Source: a virus
Lineage: Duplodnaviria; Heunggongvirae; Uroviricota; Caudoviricetes
DNA length: 54,063 nt
IMG/VR virus record: IMGVR_UViG_2861048470_000002
Strand: one strand, 5' to 3'
The notes under the pieces were generated by a model. The model searched no databases, had not been told where the DNA came from, and worked only from the letters and a program-made list of their open reading frames with translations. This document shows, in pieces, positions 6,886 through 54,063 of the stretch (its first letter is position 1; each line of letters opens with the position of its first letter). A program made the translations under genes and the position numbers.

Positions 6886-7018
6886 TTTTTGGGACTCCTG
6901 GCTGATTAAGTATGTCGATAAGGCGTTTCCATCCGTCACGTAATTTACGGGTGATTCGTTCAAGTAAAGATTCGGAAGGGCAGCCAGCAACAGGCCACCC
7001 TGCAATGGCATATTGCAT
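6854..7018 (-). CDS. cIII: Lambda CIII (FtsH inhibitor), 54 aa
   Basis: Hand translation of the reverse strand gives [54 protein letters not shown]; below the ORF-track cutoff. Confidence 0.9.
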   Translation of the reverse strand: MQYAIAGWPVAGCPSESLLERITRKLRDGWKRLIDILNQPGVPKNGSNTYGYPD

Positions 7019-7090
7019 GGTGTGCTCCTTATTTATACATAACGAAAAACGCCTCGAGTGAAGCGTTATTGGTATGCGGTAACGCCGCGC

Positions 7091-7459
7091 TCAGGCGGCT
7101 TTGATAGTCATATCATCTGAATCAAATATTCCTGATGTATCGATATCGGTAATTCTTATTCCTTCGCTACCATCCATTGGAGGCCATCCTTCCTGACCAT
7201 TTCCATCATTCCAGTCGAACTCACACACAACACCATATGCATTTAAGTCGCTTGAAATTGCTATAAGCAGAGCATGTTGCGCCAGCATGATTAATACAGC
7301 ATTTAATACAGAGCCGTGTTTATTGAGTCGGTATTCAGAGTCTGACCAGAAATTATTAATCTGGTGAAGTTTTTCCTCTGTCATTACGTCATGGTCGATT
7401 TCAATTTCTATTGATGCTTTCCAGTCGTAATCAATGATATATTTTTTGATGTTTGACAT
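7091..7459 (-). CDS. ea10: Lambda Ea10, 122 aa
   Basis: MSNIKKYIIDYDWKASIEIEIDHDVMTEEKLHQINNFWSDSEYRLNKHG matches lambda Ea10 from memory. Confidence 0.9.
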   Translation of the reverse strand: MSNIKKYIIDYDWKASIEIEIDHDVMTEEKLHQINNFWSDSEYRLNKHGSVLNAVLIMLAQHALLIAISSDLNAYGVVCEFDWNDGNGQEGWPPMDGSEGIRITDIDTSGIFDSDDMTIKAA

Positions 7460-15926: not shown

Positions 15927-17540
15927 TTATTTATTGGTGAGTACTACGTTCCATGGCAGGAGTTCGTCAACACGGTTGGAGGGCCATTCCGGCAGTACGC
16001 TCAGAATATGGCGCAGATACGCTTCCGGATCGATACCGTTCAGTCGGCAGGTGCCGATCAGCCCGTACAGCAGTGCTCCACGCTCGCCGCCGTGATCGCT
16101 ACCGAAGAACACGTAATTTTTCTTTCCGAGACAGACTGCACGAAGCGCTCTTTCCGCTGTGTTATTGTCCACCTCCGCCAGACCGTCATCACTGTAATAA
16201 CAGAGGGCGTCCCACTGATTCAGTACATAGCTGAACGCTTCGCCCAGTCTGGATTTTTTCGACAGCGTGCCATTCTTCTCCACCATCCATTCATGCAGCG
16301 ACGTCAGTAACGCTTTGCTTCGCTGCTGCCTGGCTGCAAGACGCTCTGACTCTGGTAATCCCCGTATTTCATTCTCGATGGCGTACAGTTCACTGATTCG
16401 CTTCAGGGCTTCTTCTGCCGTCGCACTTTTGCTGCTGATGTATACATCGTGGATTTTTCTCCGGGCATGAGCCCAGCACGCAACTTCTGTCAGCGCACTA
16501 CCTTCACGTTCTGCACTGAACAGCCTGTCATAACCTGTGAACGCATCCGCCTGCAGGATACCCCGGAAGGGGCGGAGGTGTTGCTCCGGGTGTTTCCCCT
16601 GCCGGTTCGATGAGTACGCGAACCAGACCGCCGGAGGAGATGACGAACCCGCATTGCGATCATCCCGGACATACGTCCAGATGCGCCCTGTTTTCGTCTT
16701 TTTCAGGCCCGGTGCCAGTACCTTTACCGGTGTGTCGTCAGTGTGAAGCTTGCGGGTATTCATCACATAACGGTACAGGGCATCATTCAGCGGCGTCATT
16801 AACTGGCAGCACGCGTCAACCCAGTTGGAGAGTAATGCACGGCTCAGTTCGACACCCTGTCGGGCAAAGATTTCACTCTGACGATACAGTGGCAGGTGTT
16901 CGCAGTATTTTCCCGTTAACACGCGGGCAAGTAATCCGGGGCCCGCGATACCACGCTCTATCGGGCGGGACGGCGCCGGTGCTTCAACGATGCAGTCACA
17001 TTTTGTACAGGCTTTTTTTACCCGTTCTGTGCGGATCACTTTCAGGGCGCTGCTCACCAGTTCCAGTTGTTCTGCGCTGACTTCCCCCAGATAATCCAGC
17101 TCACCGCCACACTCCGGGCAACAGCTTTCTTCAGGCTCCAGGCGGTATATTTCACGGGGGAGATGTGCCGGTAACGGACGACGATGGCGCGACTGTCGCA
17201 ACTGGCGGGGAACCAGTGGGTCATCCTCACGCCCACTGTAACGATCGCTTTCCTGCTCGCGTTGTTTCAGCAGGGCTTCAGCCTGTTCAACCTCACGACG
17301 CAGTTTTTCAGAACGGGTTCCGAACAGCATCCGGCGCAGTTTTTCTATCTGAGCCCGCAGATGCTCTATTTCTCGCTCATCTTCTTCGATCTTTTCTTCG
17401 GCACGTGCCAGTGCAGAGCGCAGGAAGGCCTCCGTCTCTTCAACCAGACTCAGTTGCTGGTCTTTCTGACGGAGGGCTTCAGCCTGCTCAGAGAGCAGCC
17501 TTTCCAGCTCAGCGATGCGAATGAGGTATTTCTGACTCAT
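15927..17540 (-). CDS. IS66-family transposase TnpC, 537 aa
   Basis: Coiled-coil N-terminus, CxxC...CxxC zinc motif, and conserved core typical of IS66 TnpC. Confidence 0.9.
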   Translation of the reverse strand: MSQKYLIRIAELERLLSEQAEALRQKDQQLSLVEETEAFLRSALARAEEKIEEDEREIEHLRAQIEKLRRMLFGTRSEKLRREVEQAEALLKQREQESDRYSGREDDPLVPRQLRQSRHRRPLPAHLPREIYRLEPEESCCPECGGELDYLGEVSAEQLELVSSALKVIRTERVKKACTKCDCIVEAPAPSRPIERGIAGPGLLARVLTGKYCEHLPLYRQSEIFARQGVELSRALLSNWVDACCQLMTPLNDALYRYVMNTRKLHTDDTPVKVLAPGLKKTKTGRIWTYVRDDRNAGSSSPPAVWFAYSSNRQGKHPEQHLRPFRGILQADAFTGYDRLFSAEREGSALTEVACWAHARRKIHDVYISSKSATAEEALKRISELYAIENEIRGLPESERLAARQQRSKALLTSLHEWMVEKNGTLSKKSRLGEAFSYVLNQWDALCYYSDDGLAEVDNNTAERALRAVCLGKKNYVFFGSDHGGERGALLYGLIGTCRLNGIDPEAYLRHILSVLPEWPSNRVDELLPWNVVLTNK

Positions 17541-17570
17541 GGCCGTTTTTATAATCCGGCCCGGCGTTTT

Positions 17571-17921
17571 TTACAACATTGTCAGTGCGTTAAGGCGGGA
17601 TGTTTTTGGCTGACGCCAGTCCAGCTTATCGAGGAGCATTGCCAGTTGCGAGCGGGTAATGGATATCTTACCGTCACGCACCGCAGGCCAGATAAACTGA
17701 CCTTCCTCAAGGCGTTTGGTGAACAGGCACAGACCATCAGCATCAGCCCACAGGATTTTAATCGTGTCTCCCCGTCGGCCACGGAAGATAAACAGGTGAC
17801 CGGAGAAGGGGTTATCATCCAGCACATGCTGTATCTGCTCCCCCAGACCGTTGAAGGATTTACGCATATCAGTAACGCCGGCAACGAGCCAGATACGGGT
17901 ACCTGATGGGAGTGAAATCAT
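17571..17921 (-). CDS. IS66-family Orf2 (TnpB), 116 aa
   Basis: MISLPSGTRIWLVAGVTDMRKSFNGL, the conserved IS66 Orf2 family. Confidence 0.9.
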   Translation of the reverse strand: MISLPSGTRIWLVAGVTDMRKSFNGLGEQIQHVLDDNPFSGHLFIFRGRRGDTIKILWADADGLCLFTKRLEEGQFIWPAVRDGKISITRSQLAMLLDKLDWRQPKTSRLNALTML

Positions 17922-18355
17922 CGTCCCCTCCCGGTCAGCTCACGGATCAACACCGTGAGCAGCTCTGGTGAAGGATTTTCCAGCATCATTTTACCGTAAT
18001 GGAATTCCACATGGCAGGAAGCTGCACAAGCAACTGATAATGCCTCCGGAGCAGGAGCATCTGTAGCACAGCGCGGGGGGTCGATAAGTTCCACTGGAAC
18101 CAGAGTCGGAGAGGCCGGAAAAGATTGTGATACTGTAGGGCCTACAATAGTTGGAGGCATTCTACGAGAAATACGTCCTTCTCTTTGCCAGAGGCGTAGC
18201 CATTTAAAAATCAGGTTGTTATCAACGCCATGTTCCCGGGCCAGTTGTGCAACATTGGCATTTGGTTTCGAAGCCAGTTCAACCATATGAAGTTTAAATT
18301 CATTAGAAAATATCCGGCGGGTTCCGGAGCGCCAGTCTGTAGGTTTATCCATCAA
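17918..18355 (-). CDS. IS66-family Orf1 (TnpA), 145 aa
   Basis: HTH-like N-terminal region; first gene of the IS66 three-gene set. Confidence 0.85.
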   Translation of the reverse strand: MMDKPTDWRSGTRRIFSNEFKLHMVELASKPNANVAQLAREHGVDNNLIFKWLRLWQREGRISRRMPPTIVGPTVSQSFPASPTLVPVELIDPPRCATDAPAPEALSVACAASCHVEFHYGKMMLENPSPELLTVLIRELTGRGR

Positions 18356-19682: not shown

Positions 19683-20066
19683 ATGCGTGATATTCAGATG
19701 GTTCTTGAGCGTTGGGGAGCGTGGGCGGCTAATAATCATGAAGATGTGACCTGGTCGTCCATTGCCGCCGGTTTTAAGGGATTAATTACTTCAAAAGTAA
19801 AATCTCGCCCGCAATGTTGTGACGATGACGCGATGATCATTTGCGGGTGCATGGCCCGTCTGAAAAAGAACAACAGCGATTTGCACGATTTATTAGTAGA
19901 TTATTATGTAGTCGGTATGACATTCATGTCACTGGCAGGTAAGCATTGCTGCTCTGATGGTTATATCGGGAAAAGGTTACAGAAGGCTGAGGGCATAATT
20001 GAAGGGATGTTAATGGCATTAGATATCCGGTTAGAGATGGATATCGTTGTTAATAACTCTAATTAA
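19683..20066 (+). CDS. Q: Late-gene antiterminator Q (phage 21 / DLP12 QuuD type), about 127 aa
   Basis: [35 protein letters not shown] and a cysteine cluster ([12 protein letters not shown]); immediately upstream of the late promoter region. Confidence 0.85.
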
Positions 20067-20093
20067 TACGCCAATTATTTACTAAAAGTTATT

Positions 20094-20254
20094 AAAAATG
20101 GGGCGTTGAAACGCCCCCAAAAATAAAGGGTAATATATAACAGAAGGTTTGTATAGTTAGAAGCAAGGTTGTGCTTCTAAAGGAAGTGGCTTGAGGGAGC
20201 CACTTATATGTTGGGGAGGCAAAGCCTCCCACAACATATCTTTTAGTAATCAAA
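20094..20254 (-). ncRNA. Candidate small RNA in the nmpC 3-prime region (IpeX-like), several stem-loops ending in a terminator at 20094-20117
   Basis: Hairpins GGGAGGC AAA GCCTCCC (20213-20229), GAAGCAAGGTTGTGCTTC, and GGGGCG TTTCAA CGCCCC followed by a U-run on the minus strand; IpeX is described as lying 3-prime of nmpC in DLP12. Confidence 0.35.
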
Positions 20255-21337
20255 TTAGAACTGGTAAACCATACCTACAGCAACGATATCATCGGTAGCA
20301 ACGCCAGATGCTTTCGTGAAATCGCTCTTATCAATCAGGTTGATTTTGTAGTCAACAAAAGTGGACATATTTTTGTTGAAGTAATAGGTTGCACCTACAT
20401 CAACATATTCAACCAGGTCCTGATCACCCCAAACACCCAAGTCTTTTCCTTTAGAATGCAGGTAAGCAACGGATGGACGCAGGCCGAAGTCGAACTGATA
20501 TTGTGCAACAGCTTCGAAGTTTTGTGCTTTGTTGGCAATATGGTTATTACCAAAAACAGTCATGTTCTGGGTTTCAGAATAGGTGGTAGCCAGATAGATG
20601 TTGTTCGCATCATATTTCAGACCAGCTGCCCATACTTCAGCATTTTGACCAGATGCATTCAGGCTGTTGTTACCGTAGATAACCTGATTATTAGTGCGGT
20701 CAGATTTAGCATAGGTTACACCTACACCGAATCCTTCATACTCATAAGTAGTGGAGAAACCGAAACCATCACCATTAGCTTCAGTTACGTCAGTGCGGTC
20801 ATTTTTACCCTGATACTGAGCAGCAAAGTTCAGACCATCAACCAGACCAAAGAAGTCATTGTTACGATAAGTTGCAACACCTGTGGTGCGACCAGTCATG
20901 AATACATCTGTTTGGGTCCAGGTATCGCCACCGAATTCTGGCAGAACGTCGGTCCATGCACCAATATCGTATGCTACACCGTAGTTACGGCCATAATCGA
21001 TGGAGCCGTAGTCACCGAATTTCAGGCCAGCGAAGGCAAGACGGGTTTTATCTTTGGAGGAACCTTGAGATTCAGCGCGGTTGCCTTTGAATTCATATTC
21101 CCACTGACCGAAACCAGTCAGTTGATCGTTGATTTGGGTTTCACCTTTGAAGCCAAGACGGGCATAAGTAGTATCACCATCATCTGCATCATTAGAGGAG
21201 AAGTAGTGCTTAGCATTAACTTTCCCGTACAGATCCAGCTTGTTACTGTCTTTATTATAAATTTCAGCTGCCTGAGCAGACATCGCCATCAGTACTGATG
21301 CAGCTACAGCAGAAATTGCCACTGTTAATTTTTTCAT
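20255..21337 (-). CDS. nmpC: Outer-membrane porin (OmpC/PhoE family; NmpC/OmpD-like), 360 aa, intact
   Basis: Signal peptide [23 protein letters not shown], porin body, C-terminal ...VAVGMVYQF; opposite strand between Q and the lysis genes. Confidence 0.93.
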
Positions 21338-21622
21338 CGTGAGCCCTTTTTTTGAACTATTATTAAAAAATGATGTCACTGCGCGATAAATATTCATCTA
21401 ATCAATGTGATTATTTCAAGATGTAAGTTTTGGTTTCTCATTTGATTTGTGAAGTAGATCTCTATTTTTATCTGAACTTTTTCTATCGAATCCTATTCAT
21501 GGCTCTTGGCTGAATAAAAATAAATCTATTAGCCAATTTATATTAATGGCTGTTATTTATAAGTGCTCTATAATTTGAAGATTCAATTTAAACCAGCTAA
21601 AAATAACGCTGGAAATTATTTG

Positions 21623-21651
21623 TTGGTTATTTGTTGAGATTTGCTTATGTA
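21623..21651 (+). promoter_or_regulatory. Putative late promoter pR-prime (-35 TTGGTT, 17-bp spacer, -10 TATGTA)
   Basis: Hexamers read from sequence upstream of the tR-prime terminator; the divergent nmpC promoter is in the same AT-rich region, so assignment is tentative. Confidence 0.3.
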
Positions 21652-21763
21652 TTTGTAGTGGTGTTTTCAATACTCGGTAGCATTCTCGCAAATATCATTT
21701 AGTGGTTTACGTACGTAAAAAATTGGTTATGCTGTTAAGAGTGGTTACTTCGTCACACAGCTT

Positions 21764-21796
21764 AAACCCGCCGTCGAGCGGGTTTTTCCATTTTTT
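21764..21796 (+). terminator. tR-prime-like intrinsic terminator (AAACCCGC CGTCGA GCGGGTTT then T-run) upstream of the lysis cassette
   Basis: Strong hairpin plus T-run about 130 nt upstream of the holin start, the classic target position for Q antitermination. Confidence 0.7.
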
Positions 21797-21924
21797 GAGT
21801 CTCGATATTAGCTGATAACCCAATACCTGAGTTATTCACTGACTCCGAGTCTGTTACGTTTCTGCTTTTTTGCGATACGTTGTATTCCCTCAATTTACAC
21901 CCGCTTTGTCTGCGAGGTGGGGTT

Positions 21925-22140
21925 ATGAAATCCATGGATAAGTTAACAACGGGTGTCGCCTATGGCACCTCAGCAGGTAGTGCCGGTTACTGGTTTTTAC
22001 AGCTGCTCGATAAAGTCACGCCCTCACAGTGGGCAGCAATAGGTGTGCTGGGTAGCCTGGTATTTGGCCTGCTGACGTACCTGACAAACCTTTATTTCAA
22101 GATTAAAGAAGATAAGCGCAAGGCTGCGAGAGGTGAATAA
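21925..22140 (+). CDS. S: Holin (phage 21 S / DLP12 EssD type), 71 aa
   Basis: [71 protein letters not shown]. Confidence 0.9.
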
Positions 22141-22637
22141 TGCCTCCATCATTACGAAAAGCCGTTGCTGCTGCTATTGGTGGCGGAGCAATTGCTATAG
22201 CATCAGTGTTAATTACTGGCCCAAGTGGTAACGATGGTCTGGAAGGTGTCAGCTACATACCATACAAAGATATTGTTGGTGTATGGACTGTATGTCACGG
22301 GCATACAGGAAAAGACATCATGCTCGGTAAAACGTATACCAAAGCAGAATGCAAAGCCCTCCTGAATAAAGACCTTGCCACGGTCGCCAGACAAATTAAC
22401 CCGTACATCAAAGTCGATATACCGGAAACAATGCGCGGCGCTCTTTACTCATTCGTTTACAACGTGGGTGCTGGCAATTTCAGAACATCGACGCTTCTTC
22501 GCAAAATAAACCAGGGCGATATCAAAGGCGCATGTGATCAGCTACGTCGCTGGACATATGCTGGCGGTAAGCAATGGAAAGGTCTCATGACTCGTCGTGA
22601 GATTGAGCGTGAAATCTGTTTGTGGGGTCAGCAATGA
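22140..22637 (+). CDS. R: SAR-type endolysin (lysozyme; phage 21 R / DLP12 RrrD type), 165 aa
   Basis: N-terminal signal-anchor ([15 protein letters not shown]) followed by a lysozyme domain; overlaps the holin stop. Confidence 0.9.
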
Positions 22638-23101: not shown

Positions 23102-23276
23102 TAGCGATAATTTTACTCATCATCCTTCACATCTGGCTCTGTAGACAGGGTGGTGATCACTTCTGGAGTAAATCCAGATTAAACATCTCATTGCTGATGC
23201 TTGATATTGAGCATCTGGCGCGCAGTAAGGGGCTGCGTTGAGATAAGAGCCAGTTCATTACAAATACCAGGATTTA

Positions 23277-23300
23277 GCCTCGCATTCGCGGGGCTTTTTA
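23277..23300 (+). terminator. Hairpin with T-run (CCTCGC ATTC GCGGGG CTTTTTA) downstream of Rz/Rz1
   Basis: Stem with one G-U pair followed by a T-run. Confidence 0.45.
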
Positions 23301-23864
23301 TATCTGAATTTCACAGCGCATCTCACGCGCATATTAACGAGAGCCTTTCAGTAAGCGAGCCTGAGAAATGCCGTTATAGGTGGCGACCTCTCTCGGGCGG
23401 CTTTTCTGTGAGACAGGCTCACTTTCTAAAAGGTAAAGACGCTATGAATAATCATTCAGTTATTCCAGCCTTCGACTTCCGAGAAATGGTGCAAGCCAAA
23501 AACGGAGAGGTCGTTACCACATCCAGAAAAATTGCCAAGTACTTCGGCAAGCGACACGGTGATGTTCTCAGGAAAATCGAGCAGGTTAAGGCTGATTGCT
23601 CGCGTGAGTTTAGCCAACGCAATTTTGCGTCGGCTGATTATATCGATGAGCAGGGCAAGGTTCGCCCGATGTACAGCCTGACGAAAGATGGCTGGATCAT
23701 GGTTGTGATGGGGTTCACCGGGAAAGCTGCTGCGGCAATCAAGGAGAGCTATATCGCAGCATTCAACTGGATGGCAGAACAACTGAGCCGCCGCATGGCA
23801 ATTGGCGAAGAAATGCAGCACCGCTACGCCATCAGTAAGCGACTCGTCAGAACCGTATTGATAT

Positions 23865-25436
23865 TTACTGAGAGCTCAGATCAACTTTCCAGGGCAACAG
23901 ATCGCGTACCCGGTTTGCCGGCCAGTCCTGGATATGTTCAATGACGTAACGCAGCCACTTTTCTGGCTCCACATTGTTCAGACGGCATGTGCCGATCAGC
24001 GAGTACAACACCGCCGCATGTTCACCACCGCTGTCGGAACCCGCGAACATCCAGTTTTTCCGGCCTACGGCCACTCCCCGTAAGGCGTTCTCTGCGATGT
24101 TGTTGTCGATTTCCACCCAGCCATTACTGCAGTACACGTTCAGTGCATCCCACTGTTTCAGCAGGTATGCGAACGCTTTTGCCGTATCTGAGTGACGCGA
24201 CAGTGTTTTCATCTGTTGCTGTATCCAGTCATACAGTGACTGCATCAGTGGCGCGGCTCTGGCTTTTCTTGCCGCCAGACGCTGTTCTGCTGAACAGCCC
24301 CGGACCTCTGCCTCGATGGCATACAGTTCACCGATACGCTGCAGGGCTTCCGTGGTGATGTAGGTGGGCGCTCTTGCATGCACATCGTGGATTTTTCTCC
24401 GGGCATGAGCCATACACGCGGCTTCCGTTATTCTGCCGGATTCGTATAACGCCCGGTAACCACCGTAAGCATCGGCCTGAAGCACACCGCTGTAACCGGC
24501 CAGGTGATTTTGTGGATGGATACCTTTCCGGTCCGGACTGTACGCGAACCAGACCGCCGGGGGCATCTGTGAACCGGCGTTACGGTCATCACGGACGTAG
24601 ACCCACAGCCGGGCTGTCCGGGTTTTACCGCTGCCCGGCTCCTGGACCGGGACGGGGATATCATCAGCATGGACTTTACCGGGCATCAGCACATACTGGC
24701 GCAGGACGTCATACAGCGGCTCCAGCAGTTCAGCAACAGCACCTGTCCAGCGCCCCAGTGTGGCACGGCTCAGCTCCACTCCCTGACGACGGTATATTTC
24801 TGACTGGCGGTATAACGGCAGATGGTCTGCATATTTCCCGGTGACAACATGGGCCAGAAGCCCCGCTCCGGCATAACTGCGTGCAATGGGTTTTGAAGGT
24901 ACTGGTGCCTGCACGATATGGTCGCACCGGCAACAGGCCTGTTTCGGACGTTGTGTTTCGATAACCTTAAAGGCGCTGCTGATAAGCTCCAGTTGCTCTG
25001 ACACATCACATCCCAGAGAACTGAGTTCACCACCACAGGCAGGACAGCATTCCTCTTCCGGCCGGATAACCCGGGTTTCACGGGGAAGTGAGGCCGGTAA
25101 CGGTTTACGGGCTGAAGACTGGCGCAGGGCGGATGGCAGTACCGGGTCATATTGCTCACCCAGCGTTTCCGCCATTTCTTCCTGAAGTGCGCTGATTCGC
25201 TCCTGTGCTTCCTGTATCTGCCGTTCGGTTTTTGCACGAAGTTTTTCTGAGCTTTTACCGAACTGCATACGTTGCAGTTTCGCAACCAGCGCCTTCAGCC
25301 GGTTGATTTCGGAAGCATAAGCCGCCACCCGCTGTGAGAGCAGGCGGTTGTATTCAGCCATCTGGCGGATGGTGTCCTGTTGCGTCTGCAACAGTGCCCG
25401 CAGGCGGGCGTTCTCATGAGCAAGTGAGGTGTCCAT
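23865..25436 (-). CDS. IS66-family transposase TnpC, 523 aa
   Basis: Homologous in layout and motifs to the other two TnpC copies but clearly a distinct sequence. Confidence 0.9.
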
Positions 25437-34765: not shown

Positions 34766-36065
34766 TCTCCCGCATATTGCCAGCATGGCCTTTAATGAGC
34801 CGCTGATGCTTGAACCCGCCTATGCGCGGGTTTTCTTTTGTGCGCTTGCAGGCCAGCTTGGGATCAGCCGCCTGACGGATGCGGTGTCCGGCGACAGCCT
34901 GACTGCCCAGGAGGCACTCGCGACGCTGGCATTATCCGGTGATGATGACGGACCACGACAGGCCCGCAGTTATCAGGTCATGAACGGCATCGCCGTGCTG
35001 CCGGTGTCCGGCACGCTGGTCAGCCGGACGCGGGCGCTGCAGCCGTACTCGGGGATGACCGGTTACAACGGCATTATCGCCCGTCTGCAACAGGCTGCCA
35101 GCGACCCGATGGTGGACGGCATTCTGCTCGATATGGACACGCCAGGCGGAATGGTGGCGGGGGCATTTGACTGCGCTGACATCATCGCCCGTGTGCGAGA
35201 CATAAAACCGGTATGGGCGCTGGCCAACGACATGAACTGCAGTGCAGGTCAGCTGCTTGCCAGTGCCGCCTCCCGGCGTCTGGTCACGCAGACCGCCCGG
35301 ACAGGCTCCATCGGCGTCATGATGGCTCACAGTAATTACGGTGCTGCCCTGGAGAAACAGGGTGTGGAAATCACGCTGATTTACAGCGGCAGCCATAAGG
35401 TGGATGGCAATCCCTACAGCCATCTTCCGGATGACGTCCGGGAGACACTGCAGTCCCGGATGGACGCAACCCGCCAGATGTTTGCGCAGAAGGTGTCGGC
35501 ATATACCGGCCTGTCTGTGCAGGCTGTGCTGGATACCGAGGCTGCAGTGTACAGCGGTCAGGAGGCCATTGATGCCGGACTGGCTGATGAACTTGTTAAC
35601 AGCACCGATGCGATCACCGTCATGCGTGATGCACTGGATGCGCGTAAATCCCGTCTCTCAGGAGGGCGAATGACCAAAGAGACTCAATCAACAACTGTTT
35701 CAGCCACTGCTTCGCAGACTGACGTTACTGACGTGGTGCCAGCGACGGAGGGCGAAAACGCCAGCGCGGCGCAGCCGGACGTGAACGCGCAGATCACCGC
35801 TGCGGTTGCGGCAGAAAACAGCCGCATTATGGGGATCCTCAACTGTGAGGAGGCTCACGGACGCGAAGAACAGGCCCGCGTGCTGGCAGAAACCCCCGGT
35901 ATGACCGTGGAAACGGCCCGCCGCATTCTGGCAGCTGCACCACAGAGTGCACAGGCGCGCAGTGACACTGCGCTGGATCGTCTGATGCAGGGGGCACCGG
36001 CACCGCTGGCTACAGGTAACCCGGCATCTGATGCCGTTAACGATTTGCTGAACACACCAGTGTAA
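34746..36065 (+). CDS. C: Capsid protease/scaffold C (with in-frame Nu3), 439 aa, GTG start
   Basis: VTAELRNLPHIASMAFNEPLMLEPAYARVFFCALAGQLGIS matches lambda C; 1320 nt as in lambda; the in-frame ATG at 34599 is upstream, inside B. Confidence 0.85.
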
Positions 36066-53479: not shown

Positions 53480-54063
53480 TGGCATTCAGAATGAGTGAAC
53501 AACCACGGACCATAAAAATTTATAATCTGCTGGCCGGAACTAATGAATTTATTGGTGAAGGTGACGCATATATTCCGCCTCATACAGGTCTGCCAGCAAA
53601 CAGTACCGATATTGCACCGCCAGATATTCCGGCTGGCTTTGTGGCTGTTTTCAACAGTGATGAGGCATCGTGGCATCTCGTTGAAGATCATCGGGGAAAA
53701 ACCGTCTATGACGTGGCTTCCGGCGACGCGTTATTTATTTCTGAACTTGGCTCGTTACCGGAAAATGTCACCTGGTTATCGCCGGAAGGGGAATATCAGA
53801 AGTGGAACGGCACAGCCTGGGTGAAGGATACGGAAGCAGAAAAACTGTTCCGGATCCGGGAGGCGGAAGAAACAAAAAACAGCCTGATGCAGGTAGCCAG
53901 TGAGCATATAGCGCCACTTCAGGATGCTGTAGATCTGGAGATCGCAACGGAGGAAGAAACCTCATTGCTGGAAGCCTGGAAAAAATATCGGGTGTTGCTG
54001 AACCGTGTTAATACAACAACTGCACCGGATATTGAATGGCCAACAGTACCCATTATCGAATAG
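53479..54063 (+). CDS. tfa: Tail fibre assembly protein Tfa, 194 aa
   Basis: [73 protein letters not shown] matches lambda Tfa; stop codon is the last triplet of the window. Confidence 0.95.

Follow-up and report, generated by a model that had tools for sequence, protein, structure and literature searches.

In Escherichia coli, the chromosomal antisense small RNAs (sRNAs) MicF and MicC block the ribosome-binding sites of the mRNAs encoding the outer-membrane porins OmpF and OmpC, respectively. The same two porins are repressed by IpeX (PMC5069750; PMC7177473), a 167-nt RNA of the lambdoid prophage DLP12 that forms part of a porin transcript and is processed from it (PMC12197685), and that was described as Hfq-independent (PMC8313858). 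We analyzed a 54,063-nt stretch of viral DNA (Caudoviricetes; IMG/VR record IMGVR_UViG_2861048470_000002; hereafter the window), in which an intact porin gene with an IpeX-like 3' untranslated region (UTR) lies on the minus strand between the late antiterminator gene Q and the holin gene. The element is almost certainly the Lc/NmpC lysogenic-conversion module of a lambdoid (DLP12/PA-2-like) prophage, and such a porin cassette, or "moron", with IpeX and an adjoining late promoter, is already known as an element and is very common. What appears to be new is a complementarity of IpeX to the ribosome-binding sites of both ompC and ompF, which leads us to favor, with some reserve, a picture of IpeX as a two-headed MicF/MicC-like antisense RNA residing in phage porin 3' UTRs, whose seeds would have been kept or re-tuned in lambdoid and P1-like lineages.

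The sequence-only reading of this locus had proposed an IpeX-like RNA downstream of the porin, with three or more stable hairpins ending in a terminator, and both parts of this proposal held. Aligned over 167 nt, the UTR shows ~96% identity with two sequences, the nmpC-quuD intergenic region of K-12 and the 3' region of lc in phage PA-2, whose ipeX intervals are identical to each other; the approximately 7 substitutions or indels that set the window apart are confined to loops, to the bulge of hairpin 1 (H1) or to the flanks. Castillo-Keller et al. in 2006 reportedly placed ipeX between the nmpC stop codon and a terminator, with an identical sequence in PA-2. The minus-strand RNA of 20088-20257 folds with a minimum free energy (MFE) of -58.5 kcal/mol, as compared to -29.0 +/- 3.8 kcal/mol in 200 shuffled sequences, none of which was as stable (z = -7.7). 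The fold consists of three hairpins (H1, H2 and H3), an unpaired AU-rich linker and an intrinsic terminator (Table 1), the last of which was also called by a pattern scan.

Natural variation follows this architecture closely. The ipeX element was detected in 2509 of 5426 complete E. coli genomes, and the lambdoid-type UTRs vary in loops and in the bulge, with one additional change of an A-U to a G-U pair; terminator variants differ in the loop alone, and the linker is invariant in all common variants. Across 80 loci of porin relatives in IMG/VR, none of them below 99% identity, the UTR varied solely in loops, in the bulge and by G-U changes. Scanning a genome collection with the exact stems returned Escherichia only, apart from one contaminant contig, and yielded no cross-genus covariation. 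In Rfam 15, no family matched the UTR at the gathering threshold or at E <= 10; Rfam apparently contains no IpeX model, so the failed match is no argument against membership in this group. An alternative assignment of the region, as a gene formed by the 53-aa open reading frame (ORF) at 20092-20253, was rejected, since this ORF has no family match and carries indels between variants.

Pairing partners of the UTR were searched for using a windowed duplex scan that considers unpaired probabilities and includes the cost of opening both RNAs; whole-length duplexfold was discarded, as it returned meaningless end-to-end duplexes, and candidate preselection by duplex energy masked the ompF site. Within the linker, the scan predicts two overlapping seeds. 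One of them, AACCUUCUGUUAUAU, pairs with AUAUAACAGAGGGUU in the ompC leader, a segment that includes the Shine-Dalgarno (SD) sequence GAGGG, through 14 Watson-Crick pairs and one G-U pair (duplex energy -20.2 kcal/mol; total energy -15.1 kcal/mol). The other, the MicF-like GUUAUAUAUUACCCUU, pairs with GAGGGUAAUAAAUAAUG, which spans the SD and the AUG of ompF, with a total energy of -13.7 kcal/mol. Dinucleotide-shuffled leaders never performed as well, with 0/200 for ompC (z = -5.2) and 0/200 for ompF (z = -5.4), and in 120 kb of background DNA the best duplex reached -21.2, compared with -25.9 for the full linker on ompC. Control searches gave a best value of -6.6 at an irrelevant site for ompA and of -3.5 for the porin's own leader. 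The ompC target region is identical in 5353 of the 5426 genomes. We take repression of ompC and ompF by direct antisense pairing at their ribosome-binding sites to be a reasonably probable prediction of these energy calculations, and a long, accessible duplex with ompC would fit the description of IpeX as Hfq-independent. This independence reportedly held for ompC, with the effect on ompF requiring Hfq, and ompA was reportedly unaffected by IpeX. The RIL-seq supplementary tables consulted list neither ipeX nor nmpC.

The mode of action and target sites predicted for IpeX are thus the same as those of MicF and MicC, and the anti-ompC seed overlaps the MicC site through the motif GUUAUAU. Unlike these sRNAs, IpeX has no free-standing gene of its own but forms the 3' UTR of a porin mRNA from a phage, and it would carry seeds for both porins in a single RNA, placed internally in the linker instead of 5'-terminally. 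The apical loop of H2, CCCUCA, is in addition complementary to UGAGGG, the SD of ompF, and to GAGGG in ompC, and could provide a second anti-SD contact.

A diverged IpeX-like UTR, which does not seem to have been described as an IpeX homologue so far, occurs behind the nmpC gene of the P1-like phage P7 (AF503408.1; 2017-2200 of the compared stretch) and in related plasmid prophages. In total, 152 E. coli genomes carry this P7-type UTR, 100 of the copies being on plasmids; blastn with the window's ipeX did not pick it up. The P7 porin is 82% identical to that of the window, and its cassette sits beside ssb in a P1-type plasmid prophage, unlike that of the window. In the P7-type UTR, three hairpins are again followed by a linker and a terminator, H2 again carries the CCCUCA loop, and predicted seeds directed at ompF and ompC are present, whereas the sequences of H1, H3 and the terminator differ, the linker is longer, and the terminator tail is U7 rather than AUUUUU. 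In an alignment of ten sequences, H2 displays four pairs with compensatory double changes, some of which represent independent events, while its CCCUCA loop is invariant in all ten variants. RNAalifold, run on the MAFFT alignment, recovered only H2 and the terminator, because the sequences are too diverged between the lineages for H1 and H3 to be aligned; each of these two nevertheless forms a hairpin in every variant despite the sequence divergence.

The predicted pairing was retained between the lineages along with the architecture. In all 8 UTR variants considered (6 of them P7-type), the best duplex joined the linker to the initiation regions of ompC and ompF (positions -21 to +13), with total energies of -9 to -20 kcal/mol, compared with -4 to -7 kcal/mol for ompA. 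The P7-type linker contains the 12-mer UUAUUUAUUACC, which matches the MicF seed core at 12 of 12 positions, compared with 11 of 12 in the window, and its match to ompF is better than the window's, extending over 22 bp. This comparative conservation across lineages is, at the level of the predicted duplexes, the strongest argument for pairing.

Combining these observations, we chart a model for the cassette in the lysogen. The AT-rich region with the CRP-like site would supply the cassette's own promoter, transcription from which would yield a porin mRNA that ends in the 167-nt structured UTR. IpeX would act within the mRNA or following cleavage near the stop codon, where an RNase E-like site (AA/UUU) is present. 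Its two seeds, located between H3 and the terminator and directed at the ompC SD and the ompF SD and AUG, would block ribosome binding in the manner of MicC and MicF, and the resulting decrease in host OmpC and OmpF synthesis would allow the phage porin to take their place. Replacement of OmpC would in turn exclude phages that use OmpC as their receptor. PA-2 itself uses OmpC in this capacity. Taken as a whole, from the module and IpeX to conversion, the antisense step and the late promoter PR' with its terminator tR' discussed below, we consider this explanation likely. One more copy of the module would in itself be of little instruction, being textbook lysogenic conversion found in nearly half of complete E. 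coli genomes. If the antisense step is true, it resolves an oddity of IpeX, which has been cited for twenty years as repressing host porins without complementarity to them, and adds a phage-borne 3' UTR sRNA to the MicF/MicC porin network; a phage would then carry its own copy of a host regulatory seed with which to swap surface porins, a matter that bears on phage exclusion and on antibiotic permeability.

Several published statements and some of our own results weigh against this model. In reviews, IpeX was said not to base-pair with ompC or ompF, unlike MicF and MicC (PMC3617542), no sequences complementary to it were said to exist, its regulation being thus indirect (PMC10690425), and its regulation was said not to rest solely on complementarity (PMC12197685). 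Duplex energies like that of ompF arise about once per 12-15 kb of background and are therefore not rare alone, so that the case for ompF leans more on the position of the site; furthermore, the terminator tail contains only 5 U, which is weak for Hfq binding (a U/A-rich tract is adjacent). IpeX may instead repress the two porins indirectly, by titrating a protein or through an envelope-stress or RNase pathway, the complementarity being coincidental. A simple run-length statistic with free G-U pairing is compatible with such a coincidence, since 15-nt runs occur in about 1% of shuffles (p about 0.01, a measure that discriminates poorly), and ompA also has a 15-nt run, inside a structured region. 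We nevertheless judge an indirect route unlikely, given that no shuffle equaled either target once accessibility was included in the energy, that the pairing sites fall exactly on ribosome-binding sites, and that the P7-type lineage reaches complementarity to the same two sites via a partly different sequence. The longest exact match between the IpeX and ompC DNA is 10 nt, as the G-U pair breaks the match into 10 + 4; this lies below the default word size of BLAST and is easily overlooked, which may be why the ompC match seems to have gone unreported.

A more modest role, in which the hairpins merely stabilize or terminate the porin mRNA and have no function in trans, the cassette being silent or the prophage decaying, would agree with the general ability of stable 3' hairpins to protect mRNAs and with the elements of the IS66 family of insertion sequences (IS) that flank the region, by reason of which the prophage may be defective. 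For the porin upstream region, the sigma-70 pattern scan returned no consensus promoter and none could be placed by eye either, a point that weighs against the model above. nmpC is described as quiescent in some strains. However, CFT073 expresses nmpC alleles at 37 C (PMC12890032), the identical K-12/PA-2 sequence has a published effect in trans (PMC12197685, PMC5069750), and the linker, which is unneeded for stability, is the most conserved part of the UTR across the lineages; a purely structural role thus seems to us improbable, even more so than indirect repression. The antisense model therefore remains our preferred reading of the UTR, within a locus whose features are collected in Table 1.

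Table 1. Features of the porin locus, in coordinates of the window, with the evidence for each
Feature	Coordinates	Strand	Evidence
Late antiterminator Q (QuuD type, 127 aa)	19683..20066	+	Pfam PF06530 (Phage_antitermQ), E = 4e-53; quuD in a 99.9%-identical locus
Porin cassette ("moron") relative to Stx-type phages, approximate	20046..21703		Ends of homology to Sp5 Q and to the Sp5 PR' region
Porin 3' UTR, homologue of the 167-nt IpeX	20088..20254	-	~96% identity to the K-12 nmpC-quuD intergenic region and the PA-2 lc 3' region
Intrinsic terminator of the porin/IpeX transcript	20094..20117	-	Stem 20100-20117 of 7 bp with 6 GC pairs, loop UUUC; tail AUUUUU at 20094-20099
Unpaired AU-rich linker, 39 nt, with predicted seeds	20118..20156	-	Unpaired in MFE and centroid structures; opening energy 1.3 kcal/mol
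Predicted anti-ompF seed (MicF-like), IpeX nt 114-129	20126..20141	-	Pairs with ompF -14..+3, ~16 nt
Predicted anti-ompC seed, IpeX nt 106-120	20135..20149	-	15/15 pairs with ompC -21..-7
Hairpin 3	20157..20180	-	Fold; A-to-G variant retains the pair as G-U
Hairpin 2, apical loop CCCUCA (20192-20197)	20184..20205	-	Fold; compensatory changes
Hairpin 1, 15 bp and one bulge	20206..20239	-	Fold; natural variants alter only bulge and loop
Intact OmpC-family porin gene (Lc/NmpC type), 360 aa, 23-aa signal peptide	20255..21337	-	Pfam, NCBIfam, Lc alignment, RefSeq annotation
AT-rich porin upstream region with CRP-like site (21445-21465)	21338..21700	-	GC 0.27-0.31; 97% identical to PA-2 and DLP12
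Late promoter PR': -35 TTTACG (21706-21711), 16-nt spacer, -10 TATGCT (21728-21733), inferred start A21740	21706..21740	+	Homology to Sp5
tR'-like intrinsic terminator, +25..+57 of the PR' transcript	21764..21796	+	8-bp stem 21764-21785 and U tract to 21796
P21-type holin	21925-22140	+	PF04971, E = 2e-35; annotated essD in a near-identical locus
Lysozyme	22140-22637	+	PF00959, E = 1e-45; annotated rrrD in a near-identical locus

The sequence-only reading had described the porin as an intact, nmpC-like member of the OmpC family, encoded on the opposite strand between Q and the holin, and the gene proved to be just that. The ORF is open over 20255-21397, where an upstream in-frame ATG would give 380 aa; translation most likely begins instead at the ATG at 21337, for a protein of 360 aa, as favored by the 1083-nt RefSeq coding sequence in a 99.9%-identical locus and by the same start in the PA-2 record, and the stop codon occupies 20255-20257. 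Pfam Porin_1 (PF00267) spans the protein end to end (model positions 1-337 of 337; E = 2e-152), the NCBIfam model "porin OmpC" is matched at 513.9 against a cut-off of 484, and the best relatives with solved structures are OmpK37 and OmpC (E = 1e-135). Compared with Lc of PA-2, the protein is 90% identical, including the whole 23-aa signal peptide (the annotated sig_peptide of Lc), and it ends in VYQF, with an aromatic last residue. Judging by sequence identity, the protein would form a trimeric 16-strand beta-barrel that conducts solutes. Substitutions relative to Lc cluster at residues 181-235 and 263-268, which by analogy to OmpC are probably surface loops.

From left to right, the locus reads rusA, ylcG, Q (plus strand), the porin (minus strand), a 590-nt AT-rich spacer, the P21-type holin, lysozyme and Rz. 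Besides its Pfam match, Q gave a distant match to the solved structure of Q21 (E = 7e-7). The 99.9%-identical locus resides in enterotoxigenic E. coli strain 120899, where the genes are annotated quuD, "porin OmpC", essD and rrrD, and the same 1.8 kb occurs at a coverage of at least 80% in 2464 of the 5426 complete E. coli genomes and in 36 phage records, among them PA-2 (the lc gene) and the DLP12 substitution in phage 434B. DLP12 of K-12 and PA-2 share the order of Q, reverse-strand porin, PR' and P21-type lysis genes, with 97% identity to the window over the porin-holin interval, which bears out the DLP12-like arrangement that had been proposed; the coordinates of that proposal were also right to within a few bases. 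In K-12 DLP12, nmpC is split by IS5, whereas the window's porin is intact. Matches to "phage" porins in Salmonella were set aside, as they represent a chromosomal ompN context.

Relative to Shiga toxin (Stx)-type phages, the cassette appears to have been inserted between the body of Q and PR', as judged from where homology ends on each side. The window's Q is 78% identical to that of Sakai Sp5 up to residue 125, the homology ending after RLEMD, and is completed by 7 unrelated residues; on the far side, homology to the PR' region of Sp5 starts near 21703. In Sp5, the -35 element of PR' overlaps the last codons of Q, and the window retains a relic of this arrangement at PR', ending in TTTACGTACGTAA. 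This relic of the Stx-type Q terminus (TTTACGnnCGTAA) forms the -35 region of the window's PR' (21703-21718). Together, the swapped tail of Q (20046-20066) and the relic mark the two junctions of the porin cassette, which carries its own terminator at one side and its own AT-rich control region at the other.

In the control region, where the GC content is 0.27-0.31 over 21300-21700, the CRP-like site ATTTGTGAAGTAGATCTCTAT is identical to the CRP binding site annotated in the PA-2 record. The sequence-only reading had assigned both a porin promoter and a late promoter to this AT-rich region; AT-richness was confirmed and the late promoter was supported by homology, whereas the porin promoter was not located by the sigma-70 scan. 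The scan did not call PR' either, since both the porin upstream region and PR' deviate from the consensus. In the phage Lambda_ev245, whose Q is 87% identical to the window's, a lipocalin (blc) moron is present instead of the porin, and Q is directly followed by a PR' region that differs from the window's and whose terminator is similar to that of Stx tR'/StxS (403-530 of the compared sequence). The comparison of the two sequences shows mosaic exchange at the position of the porin cassette. We did not use Lambda_ev245 as a guide for placing the window's PR', as its PR' and tR' differ and lie directly after Q.

The late promoter was placed by homology to Stx phages, whose promoter, start region and first hairpin are 77-79% identical to the window over ~83 nt; specifically, the homology links 21703-21787 to the sequence on both sides of the Q stop codon of Sakai Sp5 / Stx2 phage II. 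In these phages PR' overlaps the stop codon of Q, whereas in the window it lies 1.65 kb downstream of Q, behind the porin cassette. By dRNA-seq (differential RNA sequencing), Sy et al. located the start of PR' at a distance of 258 nt before the tR' 3' end that Term-seq had determined (PMC7547250). Counting 258 nt back from the U tract of the terminator sets the Sp5 start at an A located 7 nt past the -10 element of a TTTACG-16-TATCAT promoter, and the window has the same start context; this start was placed by distance, the published coordinates referring to an earlier version of the record. Transcription from PR', beginning near 21740, would thus yield a short leader ending at 21764-21796 unless Q modifies RNA polymerase, in which case it would proceed into the holin, lysozyme and Rz genes. 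Q-dependent read-through of a terminator was reported for DLP12, according to a citation in PMC7918800. The predicted leader of ~50 nt would be short compared with the 258 nt of Stx phages, among lambdoid PR'-tR' leaders that include lambda 6S RNA and StxS.

How strongly the hairpin at 21764-21796 terminates transcription is less certain than the presence of the promoter and the hairpin, both of which Stx-phage homology supports; the sequence-only reading had called the terminator strong. It has the canonical form of an intrinsic terminator, DLP12 and PA-2 conserve it, and the pattern scan found no other terminator-like site from PR' to the holin. Its homologue in Stx phages, the first hairpin after PR' at +24 to +50, is however read through, failing to stop the 258-nt StxS precursor (PMC7547250), and neither the second terminator nor the 74-nt StxS was found in the window, where Rfam also gave no StxS match. 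These points speak against a functional late terminator and for a Q-loading or pause region or a leaky site, with late genes in the lysogen silenced elsewhere, for example by Rho; we regard this as doubtful, albeit the most serious of the alternatives weighed here, and retain a tR'-like terminator as our reading of 21764-21796. An Rfam match of Trp_leader over the same hairpin (E = 0.53, below the gathering score) was dismissed as chance.

Additional observations concern the surroundings of PR'. The 21-nt second "CRP site" of the 1986 PA-2 record coincides with +1 to +21 of the PR' transcript (21740-21760, plus strand) and, given its conservation with the PR' of Stx phages, more likely serves in Q loading or pausing than in CRP binding. 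Within the leader between PR' and the holin, K-12 DLP12 lacks 16 bp (CTGCTTTTTTGCGATA) that are present in the window (21868-21883) and in PA-2, as seen over positions 7150-7400 of the compared K-12 sequence. Inside a long head-gene ORF, the stretch at 34812-34837 (plus strand; GAACCCGCCTATGCGCGGGTTTTC) nearly matches the Stx-type PR' hairpin over 26 nt, probably by coincidence.

The two IS66-family elements are situated at 15927-18355, in the nin region upstream of rusA, and at 23865-25436, just downstream of Rz, and comprise ORFs of 145, 116 and 537 (or 523) aa. The second of them seems to cut short a Rha/antirepressor-like ORF at 23201-23944, and in the closest complete genome its place is taken by IS100. 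Outside the porin region, Rfam matches included the lambda cIII thermoregulator (88.5 bits; 6973-7031, minus strand) and IS009 (225 bits; 53822-54020, plus strand).

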